40,302 nucleotides of DNA from a virus. A model generated the notes under the pieces. The model was not told the DNA's origin, did no database searches, and saw only the letters and a program-made list of their open reading frames with translations. Positions 1,079 to 37,903 of the stretch are shown one piece after another. Each line of letters opens with the position of its first letter. Within the stretch, counting starts at the first letter, position 1. A program made the translations under genes and the position numbers. The stretch lies in the UHGV virus genome UHGV-1363354; one strand, given 5' to 3'.

Positions 1079-1117
1079 ACGCGCGCACCAGCGGCCCCCA
1101 GGGCCACGTTAAGGGGA

Positions 1118-1146
1118 TTATATAGCGGTGGTGAGGATTAGGCAAA
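1118..1146 (-). promoter_or_regulatory. Candidate sigma70 promoter for the terS-terL late operon (TTGCCT/TTTGCC - 17 - TATAAT on the minus strand)
   Basis: Consensus -10 TATAAT about 40 nt upstream of terS, read on the minus strand. Sits immediately after a terminator hairpin. Confidence 0.4.
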
Positions 1147-1168
1147 AGAAGCCCGCACGGAGGCGGGC
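1143..1168 (-). terminator. Rho-independent terminator downstream of the DUF551 gene
   Basis: GCCCGC-ctccgt-GCGGGC stem followed by TTCTTTTG on the minus strand. Confidence 0.5.
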
Positions 1169-2571: not shown

Positions 2572-2601
2572 AGTATAATCATACTGCAACCAACATTGCA
2601 A
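2572..2601 (-). promoter_or_regulatory. Sigma70-type promoter TTGCAA - 18 - TATACT on the minus strand, containing a GTTGGTTGC motif
   Basis: Minus-strand read cTTGCAAtgttggttgcagtatgatTATACT, about 35 nt upstream of the 2539 start. Same architecture as the promoter at 6338-6367. Confidence 0.45.
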
Positions 2602-2689: not shown

Positions 2690-3184
2690 CTACTTCACGG
2701 CCCTGCCAATAGCCTCGGCCTCGGCCGCCGATTTGCCGTCGAATAGCGCGAGTCGCCCGGTTGCGCGCCGGCGCAGTCCCAGCATCACCTTACCGCCCTG
2801 ATAGATGAACTGCGGCAGCTTGGTGCGCAGCGTCGCAATATCCCCGCGTCGCAGCGCCTGGCCGGTTCCGGTACTGGGCGCGATCACTTTCGGCCCGGCG
2901 TTGAATACCAGATCTACCATGGCGTCGAAGTACGGCCCGGTGACCAGCGGATGCGCCACTGCGTCTACCTGGCGCTCGGCGTCCGTCATATCCTGGCGCA
3001 GTAACGCCCGCGAGTCCGGCTCGGTGATACTTGCCGGCGCCTGGGCGCGCGTTCCGGTGTGACCGTATCCCCAGGTCAGGATCCCGCGCTCCTTCTCTTT
3101 GGCGGTCGCGTAATACGGCACAGGCTTAAACGTCTCCCAGCGCCGGGCGAATTCAACGGCGTTATCGCTGACTGTTCTTTGCAT
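2690..3184 (-). CDS. Endolysin, GH24 (T4-lysozyme-type) muramidase
   Basis: FARRWETFKPVPYYATAKEKERGILTWGYGHTG motif (catalytic E...D...T) characteristic of phage lysozyme family 24. Confidence 0.85.
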   Translation of the reverse strand: MQRTVSDNAVEFARRWETFKPVPYYATAKEKERGILTWGYGHTGTRAQAPASITEPDSRALLRQDMTDAERQVDAVAHPLVTGPYFDAMVDLVFNAGPKVIAPSTGTGQALRRGDIATLRTKLPQFIYQGGKVMLGLRRRATGRLALFDGKSAAEAEAIGRAVK

Positions 3185-3446
3185 GGATTAACCTCCGATA
3201 TTTGATGTAGCGCACCGACTTAACACAGGCGCTGCGCAGAAATGACAATGTGACCAGCACCAGGAGTGTTGACCAGATGAATAACGGCGCGCTGCCGTCT
3301 TTGTAGATGTGGATCAGCCCGGCTCCGCAGGTGAGAAACAGGCCCATGAATGCCAGGCGGCCCAGCAGGCCGTCGTCGACCCAGTGGGCGTAAATGTTAA
3401 ACAGCGCGGTTGCGGCGATAACGGAAAGGCAGAAGGCACTAAGCAT
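3162..3446 (-). CDS. Holin (3 predicted transmembrane segments, charged C-terminus)
   Basis: 94-aa membrane protein immediately upstream of and overlapping the lysozyme gene. Hydrophobic segments plus a KYRRLIHAKNSQR tail. Confidence 0.6.
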   Translation of the reverse strand: MLSAFCLSVIAATALFNIYAHWVDDGLLGRLAFMGLFLTCGAGLIHIYKDGSAPLFIWSTLLVLVTLSFLRSACVKSVRYIKYRRLIHAKNSQR

Positions 3447-3448
3447 GG

Positions 3449-3730
3449 CTATTTACCCCACGGTAGTTTAAAGCCGCTCGCCGCTACTTCCAGGGCCTCG
3501 AAGAATTTCCACCAGAAGGCGCCGATCACGAAAGGCACCAGGTATTGCCCGTCGGTGTCCGCCAGCTCGAAATAGCGGATCCCAAACGGTGAGAAGTAAA
3601 CGGCACAAGCGGCACCGGCGGCCAGGTGAGCGCAGCGCTTCCACAACGGTAGCTGCTCTGCTTTCTTCACCTGGGCCACGATGCCGCCGCATACGGCTGC
3701 GACGACAAGCCAGAAATATCTGTCAATCAA
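3449..3730 (-). CDS. Second holin-like / antiholin-like small membrane protein
   Basis: 93-aa protein with 2-3 hydrophobic helices. TTG start abutting a hairpin T-run. Position directly upstream of the holin. Confidence 0.4.
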   Translation of the reverse strand: MIDRYFWLVVAAVCGGIVAQVKKAEQLPLWKRCAHLAAGAACAVYFSPFGIRYFELADTDGQYLVPFVIGAFWWKFFEALEVAASGFKLPWGK

Positions 3731-3762
3731 AAAGGACCCCCGAATGAATAGTATTCGGGGGC
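3731..3762 (-). terminator. Hairpin CCCCCGAAT/ATTCGGGGG followed by a T-run (minus strand), ending at the TTG start of the next gene
   Basis: 9-bp perfect stem with 7-nt loop. GGGG within the stem could serve as the Shine-Dalgarno for the 3730 TTG start. Confidence 0.4.
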
Positions 3763-6639: not shown

Positions 6640-6919
6640 CATTCGAGCTATTGCAAACTCGCAATTAAAATGATATGCTCACTGCGTTCGCTTGGCAAAG
6701 CCCGCCAAGGCGACTTGCCTGCGACGCAAGAACGTGAGCATTTCAGGTTTTGCGAATAAAATCCCTCCATAAATCAATCACTTACCTACCGACTCGCAAT
6801 CCATTTTTGCGAAAACCAACAAAAACACCCTAAGTCATTGAAAACGTTACTCGCAATCTCATTCGCAAAATTTTGCGAGTCTTGCGAGTCGATTCGCATT
6901 ACTCGCAACACGTATTATT
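6640..6919. repeat. Iteron-like cluster of at least 8 CTCGCAA / TTGCGA(A/G) heptamers, including the perfect 16-bp palindrome TCGCAAAATTTTGCGA at about 6863-6878
   Basis: Heptamers in both orientations with AT-rich spacers in about 280 bp of non-coding DNA directly downstream of the primase-helicase gene. A 43-bp block (6849-6891) is copied at 36779-36821 with 1 mismatch. Confidence 0.55.
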
Positions 6920-9220
6920 TTACGAGTTTAAGTCCTCATCGCTTGCAACCAATTCCGGCGGGTCGAAGTCGTTTACGCCAGTCGGCAGCCTGTATTGTTG
7001 GTTGTAAACTTCGCCTGTATTCGGGTTGCGTCCGTGCACTAAAACCCGTCGTCGGACTAATTCCTCCAGCACTTTTTTATAGTTGCCGCTGGTGAACTTG
7101 TTTCCGCCGGCGGTGCCGATGGCGTATGGTGAATAGCCTTCCGGTTTATCCTCCAGTAGTTCGAGCTGGGCCACCATCACCTCTTCGGCCTTGTTCTTGG
7201 GCCCTGCGCCGCCGGAGGCTTTCACCGCCTCCCGGGCTACTTCGGCAGCTGGCGATTCGAACGGTGCCAGGGCGACCGGTACCAGGTACAGCGTTTCATC
7301 GCGCGGCGACATCTCCAGCGGTTTCGGCGTCCAGCCGGATAGCTGATCGGAAAAGTCCGGGCCCGCGGCGTTGGACAGATACGCGTCGACGCGGTCGGCG
7401 TGCGCCTGGGGGACGTCGATTTTACATTTCAGCAGGACGAAGCCGCGCGGCGACTGTTTGATGCCGTTACGCGCTTTTTCGTGATAGAGGTTGATCTGGT
7501 GAGGCTTGGCCTCGTCCGGCTGCTCGATGAAGAAGGCGTAATCCACGGCGCCATGAAGCGCGCCAGAGCCGCGGGCGGTACGCTGGCCCGAGGAGGACTT
7601 CGCCGGGTGGTGGATAACGCCGGCGCTGCCGCCGGTGGTCTCGGATATCTGTTTCAGCGCGCGGACGATTTCCCCCATATCGGTTGGGGAGTTTTCGTCG
7701 AACGGCTTTTTAGCTGTGCTGCGCATGGCGACAGTCTGGTTAAGCGAGTCGAAGGCTATCAGGCCGACTGGCGAATCGCCAGCTGCATCACGGATAATCT
7801 TGCATACCTCTTTCACGCCGCGCGCGTCGGTGATGTCGATCCCCTTATCCTGCAGGTCGATGATATGCAGCCAGTCCAGGTCGTCCTGATACATCTTCTG
7901 CAGCGCCTGCTTGCGGTGGAGGCTGGTTTCGCCGCCTTCCGCATCGAAATAAAAGTTGTGGGCGCGCACGACACGCCGTCCGCCGAACGGGATCCCGGCG
8001 GATATGGCCGCCATCTGGCCGAGGACGAAGAACGATTTACCGATGTTCGACTCGCCGGCGGCGTACCAGGTCGATTTGAAGTTAACCAGGCCCTCAATGA
8101 TGGGGTCACGCTTGGTGAACAGGGTAACCGGGTCGTCGTCCAGGTCCTCGTCGGTACACTGGCCGGCGGACGGGCCGTCCAGCGCCGCCATTACCTCGGC
8201 CTCGTAGATGTTGGTGATCTCCTCTTCCGGTAAATCCGGCAGCAGTTCGGCAATTTGCTTTTTGCTGATATTGTGGGCTTCGGGCAAATACTGGTCCGGT
8301 ACGCCGCAAAGGCGAAGCAGCATGTGCTGGTGGGTATTGTGCTTCCTGCAGTGGTCGTGCTGGCACGCGAAGCGCACCTCGGGGTGAAGGGCGTCGGGCA
8401 TCATGATCGCCGTGCTGCCGTCGGTCCCGTCGTTGTCGCTGTGCTGGAAGTGGTTAGGGCACTGTATGGCGAAGCCACGACCAGAGGATAGCGGTTCGAG
8501 GCCCATCTCCCAGCACCACGCGGCGATTGCCTGGCTGTTCTCGCTGGCGTTCTCCAGCGCTTCGTCGGTCCAGTTGGTTGAGCCCGATTCGTCCGGCACG
8601 TCGAACCGGTGGCGCAGGATGCGGCGGACGCTGGCGGGCGCGCCGCGGTGGTCGATGGTTTCCGCTTCGATGTGCGGGGCGAACATAAGACGGGCGCGCT
8701 GGAATGCGGTTTCGTCCATCCCTTTCGCGCCGGTGAGCCCGAGCATATCGATGAATTTGTGCTGGCACGGCCAGATCTCATCCGCCAGCATCGGCCGGTC
8801 TGTCGGGATGAGGAAACGCCAGGAGCGCGACTTAACGCCGCCTTTCAGGTCGTGCCGGTCGCCGCAGGTGGAGTAAGCAAAGAAAGTGTATCCGCCATCC
8901 TCCAGCGCGCGACGCACCCGGCGGATCTCTTTGCTGGAGACTTTGTCGATGTCGATAAACAGCAGGGATCGGGAAATGACGTTGTTGTTATTGCGCTTGT
9001 TGCGCTCAAACTCGGCGGCGACATACGGCAACCGGCCTTTCTTTTCTTCGTAGCGATCTTCGGTCTCGCTGCCGTCAATGGATACCCCCAGCACAGGGTC
9101 AGCGCCGATATCCAGCAGGTCGTCGATAAACTCATCCCAGGAGGATTCGAAAGCCTTCGGGCGATTGTCGGTTTTATGCCGGCCGAGAGAATAGGATATT
9201 TTTGATTTTAACCGTGGCAT
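6920..9220 (-). CDS. Bifunctional DNA primase-polymerase (AEP-type) / RecA-like (AAA_25-type) helicase, with a C-terminal winged-helix-like domain
   Basis: LLFIDIDKVSS (DxD of AEP primases), Zn-binding QCPNH...CQHDHC, Walker A AGESNIGKSF, basic C-terminal region KKVLEELVRRRVLV. 766 aa. Confidence 0.75.
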   Translation of the reverse strand: MPRLKSKISYSLGRHKTDNRPKAFESSWDEFIDDLLDIGADPVLGVSIDGSETEDRYEEKKGRLPYVAAEFERNKRNNNNVISRSLLFIDIDKVSSKEIRRVRRALEDGGYTFFAYSTCGDRHDLKGGVKSRSWRFLIPTDRPMLADEIWPCQHKFIDMLGLTGAKGMDETAFQRARLMFAPHIEAETIDHRGAPASVRRILRHRFDVPDESGSTNWTDEALENASENSQAIAAWCWEMGLEPLSSGRGFAIQCPNHFQHSDNDGTDGSTAIMMPDALHPEVRFACQHDHCRKHNTHQHMLLRLCGVPDQYLPEAHNISKKQIAELLPDLPEEEITNIYEAEVMAALDGPSAGQCTDEDLDDDPVTLFTKRDPIIEGLVNFKSTWYAAGESNIGKSFFVLGQMAAISAGIPFGGRRVVRAHNFYFDAEGGETSLHRKQALQKMYQDDLDWLHIIDLQDKGIDITDARGVKEVCKIIRDAAGDSPVGLIAFDSLNQTVAMRSTAKKPFDENSPTDMGEIVRALKQISETTGGSAGVIHHPAKSSSGQRTARGSGALHGAVDYAFFIEQPDEAKPHQINLYHEKARNGIKQSPRGFVLLKCKIDVPQAHADRVDAYLSNAAGPDFSDQLSGWTPKPLEMSPRDETLYLVPVALAPFESPAAEVAREAVKASGGAGPKNKAEEVMVAQLELLEDKPEGYSPYAIGTAGGNKFTSGNYKKVLEELVRRRVLVHGRNPNTGEVYNQQYRLPTGVNDFDPPELVASDEDLNS

Positions 9221-15351: not shown

Positions 15352-15747
15352 ATGAATGACATTATGCATTTCGTGAAACGGCAGAAGCTGAAATGGTTCA
15401 ACGCCACGCCATACCCGGCGCAAATAATCGTCTATATCCTTGGGGAAGATGAAAAGTTATTGAAGGCCATCCCCGATCACCCACCACTTGGCGAGGGCAC
15501 TAACGGCCGTTGTTGCTGGATGCAAAAGGATGGGTACAACATTATCACAATCGGCGTTAAGCGCGACCTGGGCGACTTTATGGCCGTTGCCGCGCATGAG
15601 TGTTATCACGCGATGAACGCGTGTTATGGCTGGTTCGGTGCGCAGCATGATACGGAGAACGACGAGCCAGGAGCCTACTTTCTGGGGCACATCATGCGTG
15701 AGTTTACGATCCGTTTCGCCGAATTGCTGGAGGAAACAAAGCCGTGA
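15352..15747 (+). CDS. Putative HExxH zinc metallopeptidase (SprT/Wss1-like)
   Basis: VAAHECYHAMNA motif in a 131-aa protein. Confidence 0.45.
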   Translation: MNDIMHFVKRQKLKWFNATPYPAQIIVYILGEDEKLLKAIPDHPPLGEGTNGRCCWMQKDGYNIITIGVKRDLGDFMAVAAHECYHAMNACYGWFGAQHDTENDEPGAYFLGHIMREFTIRFAELLEETKP

Positions 15748-18897: not shown

Positions 18898-19381
18898 CAA
18901 ATCAAACACGGCTCCGGAGGATAAGGACTGCTGGCGCTCACCACCGGAGATATTCGAGCCGCTGAATGAGCGGTTTAATTTCCGCTATGACATGGCGGCA
19001 GCAGATCACAATGCACTTTGCGCACGGTACTACACGGAACAGAATAGCGCCCTGGGTATCGAGTGGCCCGCAGCATGGAAATGGTGTAACCCGCCATACT
19101 CGAAGCCGCTGCCTTGGTTCCAGCACGCCGCGCAGTACCGGAAAACGGTGTTGCTCCTGCACCTGGCCGTCGCTACGCAGTGGATGGATATTGCGCGCCG
19201 GGAGGCGAATACCATCATTCAGCTGACAGAGCGCATTCAGTTTATCCACGCCAGGACCGGCGAGCGCGCGGCGACGAAGAACAACCGCGACTCGGAGATC
19301 ATCATCTTTGGCCGTCGGCCTAACCCTGACGGCGCGCGCATCGTCCAGTGCTCGATCGCGGATATCGCAAAATATCTATAA
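18890..19381 (+). CDS. dam: Phage-type DNA N6-adenine methyltransferase (Dam)
   Basis: DMAAADHNALCARYYT and catalytic NPPY (WCNPPYSK) motifs. Confidence 0.8.
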   Translation: MADKSNTAPEDKDCWRSPPEIFEPLNERFNFRYDMAAADHNALCARYYTEQNSALGIEWPAAWKWCNPPYSKPLPWFQHAAQYRKTVLLLHLAVATQWMDIARREANTIIQLTERIQFIHARTGERAATKNNRDSEIIIFGRRPNPDGARIVQCSIADIAKYL

Positions 19382-19417
19382 ATGTTGGTTGCAATATTAG
19401 CGAAGTCATATTATATT
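19382..19417 (+). promoter_or_regulatory. Promoter (c): ATGTTGGTTGCAAT - 17 - TATATT
   Basis: -35 TTGCAA at 19389-19394 and -10 TATATT at 19412-19417. About 80% identical over 58 bp to the promoter at 35462. Confidence 0.5.
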
Positions 19418-19436
19418 TAGTTCATAGGGCGGCGCG

Positions 19437-19677: not shown

Positions 19678-19893
19678 ATGAAACGTATTACCGCAATCGC
19701 AATCACTCTGGCCGCCGTCCTGGGCTGCTCGTATGTCGGGTCTGCCGCTGCCGTCACTCCGGTAGAAATGTGCCAGGAGTTAGCCGAAATGGGTGGCGTT
19801 ATCGTTGACGCCCGGAACCGCGGCGATTCGCTGGAAAACGAACCAGCATTATCAACGGCAGCGATATGGTCCCAAGCCTTAAAGCCGGCATGA
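19678..19893 (+). CDS. Small lipoprotein (candidate Cor/Llp-like superinfection-exclusion protein)
   Basis: MKRITAIAITLAAVLGCSY is a signal peptide with an LGC lipobox. Located next to the tail fibre genes. A 35-aa ORF (19890-19997) is ATGA-coupled downstream. Confidence 0.45.
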   Translation: MKRITAIAITLAAVLGCSYVGSAAAVTPVEMCQELAEMGGVIVDARNRGDSLENEPALSTAAIWSQALKPA

Positions 19894-29700: not shown

Positions 29701-29877
29701 TGAATTCTTTAATTTTTACCATGCTCGTTGTTAACTTCATCCCGTGGTTCGTCGCTTTGCACCGCAACCATAACGCAAAGCTGGGCGTGTTTATCAGTAG
29801 CCTGTTCCTTAACTGGACTCTGCTGGGCTGGGTGTTAAACCTGGTTTGGGCCTGTAACTCTAATACGAAGAAATAAG
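29701..29877 (+). CDS. Superinfection immunity protein (Imm-like small membrane protein), plus-strand moron with own promoter
   Basis: MNSLIFTMLVVNFIPWFVALHRNHNAKLGVFISSLFLNWTLLGWVLNLVWACNSNTKK. HRNH and NWTLLGW signature. Two transmembrane helices. TTGCGC - 17 - TATATT promoter at about 29642-29670. Confidence 0.5.
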
Positions 29878-34670: not shown

Positions 34671-35366
34671 TTAACCCTTATTTTCTGCGTCGAGACGCTT
34701 ACGGAGATCGGCACGAGTTTTTTCGATGCCTGTCAGTTGCTCGCCACCGGCCCCGCCAGTAGGATTTTTGTTCCCGGCGGCCCCGCCACCGTTCGCTGTG
34801 TCTGCCTGCATGAGATGAGAGATCACCTTATGCTTTTTACAGAAGTTGATGAATTTATCGACGTCCGTCGTAATAACTGCGCCGTCCGGGCCGACAAACT
34901 TAGTCACCAGATCATCGCCGTCGAACTCGACTTTGATAAATGGCGCGATAAGGTCGGCGGCTTCGGCGTCAATGAATTTGCCTTTAGCAATCACGGCACC
35001 CATAACGGCTTTGCGCTCGCTGCCGAGGATGCGCTCGGCCAGCTTGGTGATCTTACCGTCTTTCTCGGCGATCACCGGGTCATACTGACCACGAATCGAT
35101 TTTTCGAACTCTTCCATTTGCCCGGACTGCTTCGCCGCTTCCTGCTGCGCGCGAACACGTTCGGCTTCGGCTTCCTTCGCACGTTGTGCGGCTTTCTTCT
35201 TCTCGTCAAGAAGTGCTGTATTCTGGTTTTTCAGGCCATTAACCAGCTCGTCGACTTCTGCCTGGGTGTAGGTCTTTGGTGGTTCCGCACCGCCACCCCC
35301 GCCCTGGGTTCCGTCGTCATGTTCTTCTTGGTACGCGAAAAGGAAAGACTGTAAAAAACGATTCAT
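34671..35366 (-). CDS. Scaffolding protein
   Basis: Acidic, coiled-coil-rich (KAAQRAKEAEAERVRAQQEAAKQSGQMEEFEKSIRG). The track ORF extends to 35489. The upstream part overlaps promoter (d), so the MNRF start near 35366 is more plausible, though no clear Shine-Dalgarno is present. Confidence 0.5.
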   Translation of the reverse strand: MNRFLQSFLFAYQEEHDDGTQGGGGGAEPPKTYTQAEVDELVNGLKNQNTALLDEKKKAAQRAKEAEAERVRAQQEAAKQSGQMEEFEKSIRGQYDPVIAEKDGKITKLAERILGSERKAVMGAVIAKGKFIDAEAADLIAPFIKVEFDGDDLVTKFVGPDGAVITTDVDKFINFCKKHKVISHLMQADTANGGGAAGNKNPTGGAGGEQLTGIEKTRADLRKRLDAENKG

Positions 35367-35529: not shown

Positions 35530-35754
35530 ATGAAAATCGAAATCAGCAACATCAACGTGAACAATGACTATCTTGTTAAAAATATCGCCGGTAATGCAGG
35601 TTATGCCGCGAGTATAGAAACCGTCAACGAAACGACGATCGCTATTGACTTAGGCGACGAGGCGCATCGTGAGAAGGCTGGCATCCGTGTTATAGATGTC
35701 GAAAGAATGTTCTCGCTGTTCATCATGGCGGGCTTCACCATCCGCAAAATCTAA
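35530..35754 (+). CDS. Hypothetical protein (74 aa), first gene of the promoter-(d) cassette
   Basis: Strong RBS GAGGAAACC upstream of ATG 35530. Confidence 0.45.
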   Translation: MKIEISNINVNNDYLVKNIAGNAGYAASIETVNETTIAIDLGDEAHREKAGIRVIDVERMFSLFIMAGFTIRKI

Positions 35755-35776
35755 CCAACATAGAAGGACACGTAAA

Positions 35777-35947
35777 TGTACATAGCGACTAAATACCGTA
35801 ATTCCGGAAAGGTTGATCTGCGCCGCCTCCGCCGTTGCGCACGTCGCCTCTCCATCGTATATCGCGTTTTGGGTCTTGGCAAAACAGAAAAGTGGATTAA
35901 TAAAGCCGCAAGGAGATTCGACCGATGAAACCAATGGCGAAGCGTAA
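35777..35947 (+). CDS. Small basic hypothetical protein (about 56 aa)
   Basis: RBS AGAAGGA 8 nt upstream of the ATG. Coordinates are approximate. Confidence 0.3.
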
Positions 35948-36065
35948 CCCGACGAAGCACCAGCAACGGCGCCGGGTGTTTCTGGTCTACCTCCCGGCAG
36001 CGTGGCTAACAATCGCCTTCGTCTGCTGGGGCCTGGCCTGGCTGATAAAAAACGCCCCGTTATAG
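35925..36065 (+). CDS. Small single-pass membrane protein (about 46 aa)
   Basis: MKPMAKRNPTKHQQRRRVFLVYLPAAWLTIAFVCWGLAWLIKNAPL. Ends in the bidirectional terminator AACGCCCC-gttata-GGGGCGTT. Confidence 0.35.
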   Translation: MKPMAKRNPTKHQQRRRVFLVYLPAAWLTIAFVCWGLAWLIKNAPL

Positions 36066-36308
36066 GGGCGTTGTTACATTACGGATCCAGTCCTGCAGCT
36101 GGTACACCTGCCGCCTTAACTTTCTCCCGCAATCTATGTTCTGCACGTCTGCATTCAGATCTGCATCACTGTCCTTTTCCGCCGGCTGAAACTGGCACGG
36201 CTTCACCATCATAACCGGGGATGGCGTTGGCATTGTCGATAGCTCGCTGCTTGATTTGCACCCGGTCATCGTCAAAAGTACAGCGCACACGATCAGGATT
36301 TTGCACAT
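36060..36308 (-). CDS. o-spanin (Rz1-like outer-membrane lipoprotein)
   Basis: Signal peptide plus lipobox (LLTMTGC). Pro-rich mature part (PTPSPVMMVKPCQF). Begins inside the Rz reading frame and extends beyond it. Confidence 0.65.
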   Translation of the reverse strand: MCKILIVCAVLLTMTGCKSSSELSTMPTPSPVMMVKPCQFQPAEKDSDADLNADVQNIDCGRKLRRQVYQLQDWIRNVTTPL

Positions 36309-36555
36309 ATTTAACCACCTCTCGGGTTATCACTACGGTTTTCGCGGCGCCGGCCTGCTCGGCATCGGCGGCCTTCGTATCGTTCACCTGCTGCCCGGCT
36401 ACCTGCTTCGCCAGAGTCGCCCGGGCCTTCTCTTCCTGCTGGGCTACCAGCTTCGCGCGGCCGTCATTCCATCCCTGGCGATATGAAAACTCCGACGCAG
36501 CGAAGGTAATAATAACTGCAACCAAACACGTAATAATATAGGTCCTAAAACTCAT
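36166..36555 (-). CDS. i-spanin (Rz-like)
   Basis: N-terminal transmembrane helix (YIITCLVAVIITFAASEF) then an Ala/Gln/Glu-rich periplasmic coiled-coil. RBS AAGGTGG in front of the ATG near 36555 (track ORF 36166..36594). Confidence 0.65.
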   Translation of the reverse strand: MSFRTYIITCLVAVIITFAASEFSYRQGWNDGRAKLVAQQEEKARATLAKQVAGQQVNDTKAADAEQAGAAKTVVITREVVKYVQNPDRVRCTFDDDRVQIKQRAIDNANAIPGYDGEAVPVSAGGKGQ

Positions 36556-36721
36556 ATCGCCACCTTTACAATTGCTGCCGTTGATTTCTCGCAAAATAAA
36601 TGATACGATCAGCTTCGCTTTTGAGCGACGCCCCGCGAGGGCGGGCGCGCAACAAGCAATTGAAGTGATCGATTCAGCCTTCCACGTTGTAACTCCTTGA
36701 TTTTACTCACCTAATTTAGCC

Positions 36722-36838
36722 ACTCGCAAACTAAAACGGCAGCAACCAACTAAATTAACCTAAGTCCTTGATATCTATACTCGCAATTTCATTCGCAAAA
36801 TTTTGCGAGTCTTGCGAGTCGTCGCTACTCGTAATAAA
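36722..36838. repeat. Second copy of the CTCGCAA/TTGCGAG block with the TCGCAAAATTTTGCGA palindrome (36779-36821), plus GCAACCAACTAAATTAAC (36742-36759) and the CTCGTAAtttaTTACGAG dyad overlapping the upstream gene's stop
   Basis: 43-bp block with 1 mismatch to 6849-6891. Lies in the 244-bp non-coding gap between the head-morphogenesis and Rz genes. Confidence 0.55.
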
Positions 36839-37903
36839 TTACGAGTTCCCGGCCAGATATTTGGCGACCCGGGAATCTACTTCCGCCATCTCTTTCAGGG
36901 TCAGAGGACGGCCGAAACCATCAATTGACGCAGCGCGGAACTCTTCCGGGGTCATGCCGCTGTTACGTAAAATTGCCCCTCTCGTTGGCCCAATCGCCTG
37001 ATCCTGGAACCACGCCGGCTGGCTTTTAAGAAACTCATAATACGACGTGTTAGCATCGACCTGCATACCCCCATCGGCGCCACGCGCCGCACGCATCGCC
37101 CCTTCATCGAGGAAGGATAAGAAATCGTCGTCAATAACGGGGGCTGTGGTAGTTCGGCAGCGCGGGTGGAATGGCGGCAGCGGACCCTTACCTACTGGGA
37201 ACACCTGGGAGTCGAGCCCGCGACACGTTGCCGACGTTCTGCCGTCCAGCGTGGCAACTATTCGATATTTAGAAACGATATCATCGTTGGCCTTGTACAG
37301 CTCGTCGCGGGCCACATTCGAAACGTGGGCTACCCCGGTATGCGCGATAGTGAAAGCATCGCGTAGCGAAATATCCGCCAGGCCTCCCGCGCCGACAGTT
37401 TGCTGCACGATCTGCCTGGTTGTCATGCCCTGCACAAAGCCGCTCTGTACACCTCGCGCCAGGCGGTTCTTCTCTGACGTTGTCCAGCCGTCCAGCAAGT
37501 CAATCAGGCCCACAGGCTTATCGTTAAGCGACAAAGGCACGAATTTAACCGCGGACCATAACTCATCTGCGGTAGGCCCGGACACGAACGATCGTTTTTC
37601 TTCCCGCAGATTATCCGTCAGCGTATGACGAAACCACTTATTTTCATAATCGGCGATCTCTTTTAGGCTTTTCTCGATAGTAGACTTCCAGTCCCCGGTA
37701 ACATCATCGAGTACGCTCTCAAGAGAGGCGAGCATTTTATTCAACTTCTTTACCGTCCTGGCGTCGTCACCAAAGGCCTGCACAGCCTCTTTAACTTCCG
37801 CTTTCATACGGATAACGAACGGGATAGACAGGGACGCTGTCTGCGTCCCAAGTCTTTGAAGCCATATTTGATGGCTAATGATGTTTTGCTCCAGCTTACT
37901 CAT
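36839..37903 (-). CDS. Head morphogenesis protein (Mu F / SPP1 gp7 family)
   Basis: ATLDGRTSATCRGLDSQVFPVGKGPLPPFHPRCRTT motif. Immediately downstream of the portal gene. Confidence 0.75.
   Translation of the reverse strand: MSKLEQNIISHQIWLQRLGTQTASLSIPFVIRMKAEVKEAVQAFGDDARTVKKLNKMLASLESVLDDVTGDWKSTIEKSLKEIADYENKWFRHTLTDNLREEKRSFVSGPTADELWSAVKFVPLSLNDKPVGLIDLLDGWTTSEKNRLARGVQSGFVQGMTTRQIVQQTVGAGGLADISLRDAFTIAHTGVAHVSNVARDELYKANDDIVSKYRIVATLDGRTSATCRGLDSQVFPVGKGPLPPFHPRCRTTTAPVIDDDFLSFLDEGAMRAARGADGGMQVDANTSYYEFLKSQPAWFQDQAIGPTRGAILRNSGMTPEEFRAASIDGFGRPLTLKEMAEVDSRVAKYLAGNS

Follow-up and report, generated by a model that had tools for sequence, protein, structure and literature searches.

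The two overlapping minus-strand genes described here as Rz and Rz1 very probably represent a genuine overlapped two-component spanin pair of the Jersey family, placed at the standard Guernseyvirinae location; this assignment is drawn from sequence features and profile matches. The analysed window (the whole stretch of 40,302 nucleotides) is a complete circular genome of the Klebsiella-type Guernseyvirinae: the two ends of the window join within a 455-aa terminase ORF, and therefore the circle is real. An overlapped Rz/Rz1 pair had been predicted at 36060-36594, and both ORFs were borne out by PHROG profiles, the lipobox and alignments. Position 36594 is the upper limit of the TTG-extended Rz ORF, and the likely start of Rz is the ATG at 36555, which has AAGGTGG ahead of it and at which the relatives are annotated. 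Together with two holins and an endolysin, the two-component spanin would give this phage a complete lysis set (Table 1).

Table 1. Predicted genes and non-coding features of the spanin locus and of the other regions discussed
Feature	Position	Strand	Evidence or remark
i-spanin (Rz-type), 129 aa	36166..36555	-	ORF; phrog_2536, E 5.5e-46
o-spanin (Rz1-type) lipoprotein precursor, 82 aa	36060..36308	-	phrog_5672, E 1.3e-18; phrog_1267, E 6.7e-13; lipobox scan
Conserved non-coding element upstream of Rz, copy 1	36556..36846	-	8 phages, mean column identity 85%
Second copy of the element	6650..6927	-	Follows the helicase-primase gene immediately and precedes the minus-strand string into the holins
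MuF-like head-morphogenesis gene, upstream neighbour of Rz	36839..37903	-	PF04233, E 6.7e-08; phrog_241, E 5.8e-124
Head scaffolding gene, downstream neighbour	34671..35363	-	phrog_206, E 3.3e-34
Holin-like gene 1	3449..3730	-	phrog_2359 (holin), E 2.8e-28; hydrophobic segments
Holin-like gene 2	3162..3446	-	phrog_2508 (holin), E 1.7e-22
Endolysin, GH24 phage lysozyme	2690..3184	-	Pfam PF00959, E 5.1e-21; PHROG endolysin families
Intrinsic terminator, 8-bp G+C-rich stem then U6	36051..36072	-	Fold -16.6 kcal/mol, z -2.4
Two small genes convergent with Rz1, between scaffold and Rz1	35776..36065	+	Conserved in 37P2 and VLCpiS11a
50-aa basic protein	35776-35928	+	Synonymous/non-synonymous changes vs VLCpiS11a, 27/6
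46-aa single-pass membrane protein	35925-36065	+	Hydropathy 1.91; synonymous/non-synonymous changes vs VLCpiS11a, 14/3

The Rz and Rz1 genes

The PHROG family matched by Rz, phrog_2536, is named "Rz-like spanin". The Kyte-Doolittle profile of Rz (19-residue window) peaks at 1.89 over residues 5-23 and reveals no second hydrophobic segment, which corresponds to the predicted i-spanin topology: a single N-terminal transmembrane helix (residues ~5-23) followed by a predicted periplasmic C-terminal domain. In a single-sequence AlphaFold model, Rz forms one helix (residues 3-62) that is confident only to about residue 40 (pLDDT at least 82 across residues 1-40), the C-terminal half being of low confidence, and a crude heptad score was non-discriminating for this protein; neither confirmed the coiled coil originally ascribed to its periplasmic part. 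Rz is 43-70% identical to the Rz proteins of 37P2, VLCpiS11a, SETP3 and K1H and 38% identical to the i-spanin of TheodorHerzl; its homologues occur in 669 phage records, mostly Salmonella and Escherichia Guernseyvirinae and Dhillonvirus.

Both families matched by Rz1 also bear the name "Rz-like spanin", and AGGTGG precedes its start. The signal sequence, MCKILIVCAVLLTMTG, is followed by Cys17 of the lipobox (LTMTG/C17), with Lys18 at the +2 position. The Met at -3 lies outside the strict [LVI] consensus and inside the wider lipoprotein sets; across six phages the +2 residue is K/G/N/Q/S/G and the lipobox Cys is invariant. By the o-spanin definition of Summer et al. 2007 and Kongari et al. 2018, Rz1 therefore reads as a putative lipoprotein, since its lipobox contains the Cys and the +2 position is not Asp. 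The Pro-rich character ascribed to it, along with the LTMTGC lipobox, was recovered as well (five Pro within residues 27-42), the mature protein being 66 aa long. Cys17, Cys38 and Cys60 of Rz1 are invariant among the six phages compared, and Cys92 of Rz is kept in five of them, so periplasmic cysteines (Rz Cys92; Rz1 Cys38 and Cys60) would be present for possible Rz-Rz1 disulfides.

Rz1 is read in the +1 frame relative to Rz, overlaps it by 143 nt and runs 106 nt beyond the Rz stop, the two starts being 247 nt apart; therefore, the architecture is "overlapped". Outside the overlap, we counted 13 synonymous vs. 5 non-synonymous codon changes with respect to VLCpiS11a, which suggests that Rz1 is under purifying selection beyond its overlap with Rz. 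In the genome-wide lipobox scan, no other lipoprotein ORF overlapped a gene for a membrane-anchored protein.

The Pfam scan at E up to 0.1 gave no family for Rz or Rz1, the lambda Rz (Phage_lysis) and Rz1 models included, and the NCBIfam model P2_Rz1 (NF038368, P2 LysB/LysC) scored Rz1 at 16.6 bits (E 0.0064), below the curated cut-off of 27 bits. Therefore, the assignment to the spanins draws on the PHROG profiles and on resemblance to homologues annotated as such, and the pair is analogous to lambda Rz/Rz1 and does not belong to the lambda Rz/Rz1 sequence families.

Previously, Kongari et al. 2018 (BMC Bioinformatics 19:326; PMC6139136) united Jersey, SETP3, K1G/K1H, HK578 and further phages into one overlapped spanin family, in which the o-spanins have two conserved Cys and the i-spanin is predicted as two helices joined by a beta-strand linker. 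Both partners studied here are homologous to members of this family (PHROG 2536 and 5672), the identity to SETP3 and K1H being 43-48% for Rz and 39-44% for Rz1, and Jerseyvirus SeF1 carries these two PHROGs together with 2359 and 2508, as our phage does (PMC9409062). The likeness includes the overlap of the genes (143 nt vs. 155 nt in Jersey), the N-terminal transmembrane helix of the i-spanin, the variable transmembrane and signal-peptide regions, the location of the genes between the MuF-like and scaffold genes with holin-holin-endolysin upstream of the terminase genes, and the two invariant periplasmic Cys of the o-spanin, as Cys38 and Cys60 of Rz1 are the counterparts of Cys45 and Cys67, which are conserved in the Jersey family (PMC6139136). 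Unlike the Jersey family, this phage has no Hoc-like gene between MuF and Rz.

Two other sources of spanin function were considered and rejected. A unimolecular spanin of the T1 gp11 type would combine a lipobox at the N-terminus with a transmembrane domain at the C-terminus, and the lipobox scan revealed no such ORF; those at 19678-19893, 15488-15616 and 29757-29876, which also have a lipobox, either end without a transmembrane domain or are short and overlapping. For a cryptic spanin beside the endolysin, the ORFs at 1176-2676 showed a maximal hydropathy of at most 0.89 and neither a transmembrane segment nor a lipobox, and none of them matched a lysis family, their PHROGs being of unknown function only; the endolysin itself lacks an N-terminal hydrophobic segment (maximal hydropathy 1.04). 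No further spanin candidate was found in the genome by the PHROG search, lipobox scan and hydropathy analysis, in agreement with the original prediction, which had seen in this pair the only convincing spanins and none next to the endolysin.

The duplicated upstream element and transcription units

The 283-bp gap before Rz is filled by the first copy of a non-coding element which is present in the genome twice. Octamers of the form TTRCGAGT occur 6-7 times per copy, and each copy also has a 20-bp palindrome that is nearly perfect and a -10-like TATCAT box with an octamer after it. In copy 1, there are six TTRCGAGT octamers and a seventh, looser TTGCGAG at 36588; the TATCAT (36605..36600) is followed by TTGCGAG, a promoter-like match occurs at 36729..36700, and the near-palindrome ACTCGCAAAATTTTGCGA, the motif GTTGGTTGC and a hairpin are further features. 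Copy 2 carries a sigma-70-like promoter, TTGCCA-17-TATCAT, at 6698..6670. VLCpiS11a and five IMG/VR contigs carry the element at the same two positions. An initial impression of "ultra-conservation" of the element upstream of Rz had to be toned down because these contigs are closely related to our phage in most genes (98% in helicase-primase and up to 97% in scaffold), only the MuF module being swapped (56%). In K1H, the gap upstream of Rz has no such octamers and no 8-mer occurring at least three times, which makes the element specific to the Klebsiella-type lineage; the only matches of the K1H gap, 28-30 nt long, are to regions near the helicase-primase gene and before the tail-chaperone gene.

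One can tentatively suggest that the two lysis loci are co-ordinated by this shared cis-element, acting as a duplicated TTRCGAGT promoter/operator module for one phage or host factor, with one copy driving Rz/Rz1 and the other driving the string into holin-holin-endolysin. This suggestion is consistent with the occurrence of TTRCGAGT 14 times vs. 2.3 expected (13 of the 14 inside the two copies), with the octamer spacings identical between the copies, with the TATCAT then TTGCGAG arrangement found in both (copy 2 giving a 10/12 sigma-70 match), and with the conservation of both positions in VLCpiS11a and the five further contigs. However, copy 2 precedes the holins by 2.9 kb and five genes, a strong terminator (3762..3736) occurs just before the first holin, the copy at Rz has no good -35 hexamer, and the K1H gap is devoid of the octamers. 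The pair could instead serve replication, in an ori/crr-like manner near the helicase-primase gene, or represent a recombination linker at a module boundary, given the identity of 56% in MuF vs. 97-98% in scaffold and helicase-primase among the contigs.

The duplicated element might be a switch co-ordinating the separated lysis loci, or else a bipartite replication element like P4 ori/crr, and we suggest this with considerable reserve. The analogy with P4 is speculation, and the Pfam content of the 766-aa helicase-primase protein (AAA_25 and a BT4734-like N-terminal domain) speaks neither for nor against it. Neither the switch nor the replication reading was found described for the Guernseyvirinae, and the element may be new. 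It could reveal how late/lysis transcription or replication is organised in the Guernseyvirinae of Klebsiella, phages that are employed in therapy.

In the Klebsiella-type lineage, Rz/Rz1 looks like a short unit, with the conserved element upstream and a strong terminator, preserved in 37P2 and VLCpiS11a, at the Rz1 stop; the loop of this terminator holds the stop codons of both Rz1 and the convergent 46-aa ORF. The original statement that the pair lies in the structural operon is correct as to its position among the head genes and loose as to the operon, since the pair has its own 283-bp upstream element and its own terminator.

It is rather unlikely that the lysis genes are divided, as was also stated, into two differently regulated transcription units, with the spanins under the control of the structural genes and not of the holin/endolysin genes. 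Such a division would agree with a hairpin resembling a terminator (1168..1151) and a promoter match of 10/12 (1145..1117), both located between TerS and the ORFs near the endolysin, as well as with the promoter-like matches in the 283-bp gap ahead of Rz and, in K1H, a terminator and a TTGACT-17-TAAGCT promoter seen by eye in the corresponding gap. However, the genes from the holins through Rz1 form one co-directional minus-strand string, the terminator and promoter matches within it are at the consensus level only, and the counts of such sites are near the shuffle expectation. Moreover, the i-spanin start in Dhillonvirus overlaps the end of the minor capsid gene, and in the transcriptome of the related Kagunavirus K1B4, the lysozyme, MuF and capsid genes belong to the same temporal class (PMC12645636). 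Separate units would not imply different regulation.

Gene order in relatives and the proposed lysis mechanism

The order holin-holin-endolysin ... TerS-TerL-portal-MuF-Rz/Rz1-scaffold is common to Jerseyvirus SETP3, Kagunavirus K1H, Serratia phage Tsm2 and Klebsiella phages 37P2 and VLCpiS11a; Dhillonvirus TheodorHerzl has it for the TerS-to-capsid part only, the MuF-spanin-capsid order being found in Dhillonvirus as well. Location of spanins between the MuF-like and scaffold genes is the standard Guernseyvirinae layout, already published and ordinary, and the Schulenberg genome announcement describes the holin/antiholin and endolysin as genetically separate from the overlapping spanins (PMC6763661). 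The arrangement is not remarkable. The distances given for it hold: from the Rz start to the endolysin stop we measured 6436 nt across the junction and 32330 nt the other way (~7 kb and ~32 kb to the two holins and GH24 lysozyme had been claimed).

The pair resembles lambda Rz/Rz1 in that the DNA for a type II inner-membrane protein also encodes, in its +1 frame, an outer-membrane lipoprotein, in the periplasmic Cys and in the presumed mechanism, a periplasm-spanning complex freed by murein degradation; it differs in having no Pfam-level sequence relation to the lambda proteins and in being overlapped, not embedded. In lambda, mature Rz1 has 40 aa, and Rz/Rz1 immediately follow S and R and precede the head genes. 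In T7, the spanin genes are located between two terminase genes, and in T4 the lysis genes are scattered. Summer et al. reportedly described in 2007 T7 gp18.5/18.7 and T4 PseT.3/PseT.2 as spanins unlinked from the endolysin gene, and therefore the linkage is not required. Like our pair, these spanins are remote from the endolysin and have packaging or other late genes around them, although their sequences are unrelated and their contexts differ; Kongari et al. also noted that the lysis genes are unclustered in T4-like phages (PMC6139136).

We infer the steps of lysis by analogy with lambda Rz/Rz1; what was observed here are the identities and sequence features. The N-terminal helix would anchor Rz in the inner membrane, the remainder projecting into the periplasm, while Rz1 would be exported, lipid-modified at Cys17 and, we propose, sorted to the outer membrane because it has no Asp at +2. 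The C-terminal regions of the two proteins may bind across the periplasm, probably stabilised by disulfides between the conserved Cys, and the complexes would build up in late infection, restrained by the murein layer. Degradation of the wall by the GH24 endolysin, after the holins have let it act, would allow the spanin complexes to fuse or disrupt both membranes. The separation of spanins from endolysin may be tolerated since it is the wall, not the timing of the spanins themselves, that controls when they act, and the layout illustrates that spanin genes need no linkage to holin/endolysin genes.

The nearest public records are those of VLCpiS11a and 37P2 (Klebsiella, unclassified Guernseyvirinae), which show ~85% nucleotide identity across the structural half. 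Their Rz proteins, annotated as "spanin" or "Rz-like spanin", are 69-70% identical to ours and encoded in the same place, with the same element upstream and the same terminator, while the Rz transmembrane segment is completely different among the three phages. The Rz1 ORF is present and unannotated in both records, and its detection fills this annotation gap. In Aeromonas phage pIS4-A (Roufvirus), an i-spanin of the same PHROG 2536 (E 6.2e-36) is encoded directly after the endolysin and holin, in a canonical cassette; therefore, the head-module position is lineage-specific. That Rz and Rz1 are not lysis proteins, being membrane-associated accessories of head assembly or, for Rz1, a chance out-of-frame ORF, is highly improbable: their location among head genes, the absence of a Pfam match and the missing Rz1 annotation in 37P2 and VLCpiS11a would fit, but the i-spanin family occurs in the endolysin-holin-Rz cassette of pIS4-A, Rz1 is intact with its lipobox Cys in six of six phages and is under purifying selection outside the overlap, and missed o-spanins are a known gene-calling failure (196 cases; PMC6139136).

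As to the immediate neighbours of the spanin pair, the head-morphogenesis and scaffold genes flank it as had been described, but it is not flush with the latter: ~700 bp separate Rz1 from the scaffold gene. This interval in the Klebsiella lineage holds the strong terminator and three plus-strand small ORFs, whereas in K1H it is only 29 bp long. Searches of the whole window with Rfam at gathering thresholds and with tRNA scans found nothing. The scaffold start is likely M43 of the longest ORF; a 230-aa homologue of the scaffold protein is annotated in VLCpiS11a, and matches of 97% occur in the IMG/VR contigs.

The overlapping ORFs and their assignment

The overlapped pair of i-spanin gene Rz and o-spanin lipoprotein gene Rz1 was described accurately in the original prediction, since both ORFs are there with the transmembrane stretch, the lipobox cysteine and the Pro-rich part ascribed to them. 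The span given there holds for the ORF pair, but its upper limit, 36594, represents an upstream TTG extension; the DNA above 36555 is non-coding and conserved among relatives, whose annotated genes begin at the ATG. From this ATG, Rz comprises 129 aa (N-terminus MSFRTYIITCLVAVIITFAASEFSY...), with residues 5-23 as the sole hydrophobic stretch (Kyte-Doolittle 1.89). Rz1 starts 247 nt 3' of the Rz start and is therefore in the +1 frame; the overlap is 143 nt, and Rz1 extends 106 nt past the Rz stop. Its product (MCKILIVCAVLLTMTG/C17KSSS...) has Lys at +2, five Pro within residues 27-42 and two further cysteines, Cys38 and Cys60.

Rz matches phrog_2536 "Rz-like spanin" (E 5.5e-46), and Rz1 matches phrog_5672 (E 1.3e-18) and phrog_1267 (E 6.7e-13). 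A lipoprotein-signal scan from all ORF starts of the whole circular genome gave four candidates, among which Rz1 alone lies partly within a gene for a membrane-anchored protein. Across an alignment of Rz1 with five homologues (phages of Klebsiella, Salmonella and Escherichia), the lipobox Cys never varies, nor do the two Cys of the mature domain, and none of these sequences has Asp at +2; the periplasmic Cys of Rz is kept in five of six. Outside the overlap, Rz1 differs from that of Klebsiella phage VLCpiS11a by 13 synonymous and 5 non-synonymous codons. The o-spanin ORF is present, although unannotated in GenBank, in Klebsiella phage 37P2 (1080-1328 (-) of record L001) and in VLCpiS11a (8285-8533 (-) of record L002). 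A single-sequence AlphaFold model of Rz shows a helix at residues 3-62, but confidence drops beyond residue 40 and the C-terminal half is poorly modelled, so the coiled coil ascribed to Rz was not confirmed. Since a Pfam search with Rz and Rz1 gave no match to either, and the match of Rz1 to NCBIfam P2_Rz1 was below the family cut-off, the two proteins are, as judged by sequence, analogous to lambda Rz/Rz1 but do not belong to the lambda families.

Kongari et al. (2018; PMC6139136) defined the "Jersey" overlapped spanin family (Jersey, SETP3, K1G/K1H, HK578 and others), which has two predicted helices with a beta-strand linker, two conserved o-spanin cysteines, and transmembrane and signal sequences as its variable parts. 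The last remark fits the Rz transmembrane segment (residues 1-25, 36480-36555), which is wholly unlike between the window, 37P2 and VLCpiS11a and forms a local hypervariable patch, the adjoining non-coding DNA and the periplasmic domain being conserved. Rz/Rz1 is a two-component spanin of the Jersey family and occupies the position usual in Guernseyvirinae.

By analogy with the established lambda mechanism, Rz would be a type II inner-membrane protein, and Rz1 would be processed by signal peptidase II, receive its lipid on Cys17 and be directed to the outer membrane. The C-termini of both would join across the periplasm as disulfide-linked dimers, sterically blocked by murein until the holin-released endolysin removes it, and the freed complex would then fuse or disrupt both membranes. 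Because the wall would gate spanin action, the spanin genes would need only late expression, and for this reason could sit anywhere in the late region.

Location of the spanin genes in related phages

The window represents a complete circular permutation because a 455-aa terminase ORF closes across its ends, and its structural half is ~85% identical to VLCpiS11a and 37P2 (unclassified Guernseyvirinae). Two holin-like genes (phrog_2359, phrog_2508) and the GH24 endolysin (PF00959) do lie at 3730-2690, as proposed. The endolysin-adjacent ORFs (1176-2676) lack both a transmembrane segment and a lipobox and match only PHROGs of unknown function, so this screen gave no second spanin candidate, in line with the earlier claim.

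Rz homologues were detected by tblastn in 669 phage records, mostly of Salmonella and Escherichia phages. We inspected the annotated genomes of 37P2 and VLCpiS11a (Klebsiella Guernseyvirinae), SETP3 (Jerseyvirus), K1H (Kagunavirus), Tsm2 (Serratia Guernseyvirinae) and TheodorHerzl (Dhillonvirus). The inspected stretches of these six run portal - MuF-like - (Hoc-like) - Rz/Rz1 - scaffold - major capsid, and the terminase genes lie upstream of portal; holin-holin-endolysin precedes the terminase genes in 37P2, VLCpiS11a and K1H, where that region was inspected. The endolysin-to-Rz distance is ~7.5 kb in K1H and 6.4 kb in the window. Dhillonvirus shares the MuF-spanin-capsid order of the window, and its i-spanin gene starts within the last part of the minor capsid gene. 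Jerseyvirus SeF1 has exactly the window's four lysis PHROGs (PMC9409062), and the genome announcement of phage Schulenberg notes that its overlapping spanin genes are set apart from holin/antiholin and endolysin (PMC6763661).

The same i-spanin PHROG occurs in Aeromonas phage pIS4-A, but inside a canonical endolysin-holin-Rz cassette, so placement in the head module characterises the lineage, not the protein family. Spanin genes are also unlinked in T7, where 18.5/18.7 lie between the terminase genes, and in T4 (pseT.3/pseT.2). For T4-like phages, Kongari et al. describe lysis genes as unclustered (PMC6139136). The position is not unusual and already known: reference genomes carry it in their annotation, and published work mentions it.

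A duplicated octamer element and the transcription of lysis genes

The duplicated octamer element is the sole potentially new point. The 283-bp gap between Rz and its upstream neighbour, the MuF-like head-morphogenesis gene, is conserved at least as well as coding DNA (eight phages) and is duplicated at ~6650-6927, directly after the helicase-primase gene (AAA_25 domain). A 55-nt core is identical in the two copies, which also have in common the near-palindrome ACTCGCAAAATTTTGCGA and equal octamer spacings (135, 57, 23 and 9 nt). TTRCGAGT occurs 14 times genome-wide against 2.3 expected, with 13 occurrences inside the elements (6 in one copy, 7 in the other). The element occupies the same two positions in VLCpiS11a and five 40-42-kb IMG/VR contigs, even with MuF 56% identical; the octamer array is absent from the K1H gap before Rz (L010 4331-4837).

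Both elements start inside the terminal codons (AAC TCG TAA) of the genes upstream of them and end with TATCAT and then TTGCGAG, which in copy 2 is part of a 10/12 sigma-70 match, and copy 2 heads a (-) string reaching the holins five genes on. The element could be a promoter/operator, the two lysis loci sharing one type of control region through its copies. It could equally be a replication element (ori/crr-like), or serve as a linker for recombination where modules meet. In the five contigs (L011, L013, L017, L019, L023) the helicase-primase is 98%, the scaffold <=97% and MuF only ~56% identical to the window, which puts a module swap boundary at or near the element before Rz.

The proposal that the lysis genes are split between differently regulated transcription units is not established: the holins, endolysin, four small ORFs, TerS, TerL, portal, MuF and Rz/Rz1 form one co-directional (-) string, the boundaries of which come from consensus scans only (Table). 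Predicted terminator and promoter site counts are near shuffle expectation, so these boundaries serve as leads only. A time-course transcriptome of a Kagunavirus assigns the genes for lysozyme, MuF and capsid to one temporal class (PMC12645636). The hairpin before the first holin (3726-3762 (-)) has 10 pairs, with the holin TTG start inside the T-run and the sole purine-rich stretch, GGGGG, in the 3' arm of the stem, which suggests read-through/antitermination or translational control of holin expression.

Table. Coordinates of ORFs and predicted signals in the window
Feature	Coordinates	Strand	Location or context	Basis
Rz ORF	36166..36594 (TTG)	(-)	internal ATG at 36555 with AAGGTGG before
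Rz1 ORF	36308..36060	(-)	AGGTGG precedes start
Strong hairpin + T-run	3762..3736	(-)	just upstream of first holin	consensus scan
G+C hairpin	1168..1151	(-)	before TerS	consensus scan
Promoter match 10/12	1145..1117	(-)	after hairpin 1168..1151, before TerS	consensus scan
Strong predicted terminator	36072..36051	(-)	exactly at Rz1 stop	-16.6 kcal/mol, z -2.4
phrog_1585 protein	35530-35754	(+)	between scaffold gene and Rz1
50-aa basic protein + 46-aa single-pass membrane protein	35776-36065	(+)	between scaffold gene and Rz1
GTTGGTTGC sites	2586-2594(-), 6357(+), 6579(-), 9701(-), 12070(-), 16038(+), 19384(+), 35464(+), 36742(-)

Small plus-strand genes and other repeats

The Klebsiella lineage differs from K1H, where the Rz1-to-scaffold gap is just 29 bp, in that Rz1 is followed by a terminator, three (+) small ORFs and then the scaffold gene. 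This plus-strand cassette is convergent on Rz1, and the stop codons of the 46-aa ORF and Rz1 share one terminator loop. Purifying selection acts on the 50-aa and 46-aa ORFs, both of which are also conserved in 37P2 and VLCpiS11a.

The motif GTTGGTTGC has 9 exact copies, and 26 with at most one mismatch against 9.5 expected; at least six sites (6357, 6579, 16038, 19384, 35464, 36742) are outside coding ORFs. Those at 19384 and 35464 are inside 63-nt repeats (AATGTTGGTTGCAATAT...), read as putative TTGCAA-17-TAnAnT promoters before (+) small genes.

By eye, a terminator can be made out behind the Hoc-like gene in the 508-bp K1H gap before Rz, together with a TTGACT-17-TAAGCT promoter, a G+C-rich stretch of ~170 nt and, immediately ahead of the ribosome-binding site of Rz, a second terminator-like hairpin; this gap could represent a small RNA or leader.

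A 71-aa ORF (19678-19893 (+)) has a canonical lipoprotein signal (MKRITAIAITLAAVLG/C) and only a weak phrog_2315 match. Located downstream of a promoter-like repeat (19368-19430), where the replication module meets the tail-fibre module, it is possibly a moron or superinfection-exclusion lipoprotein.
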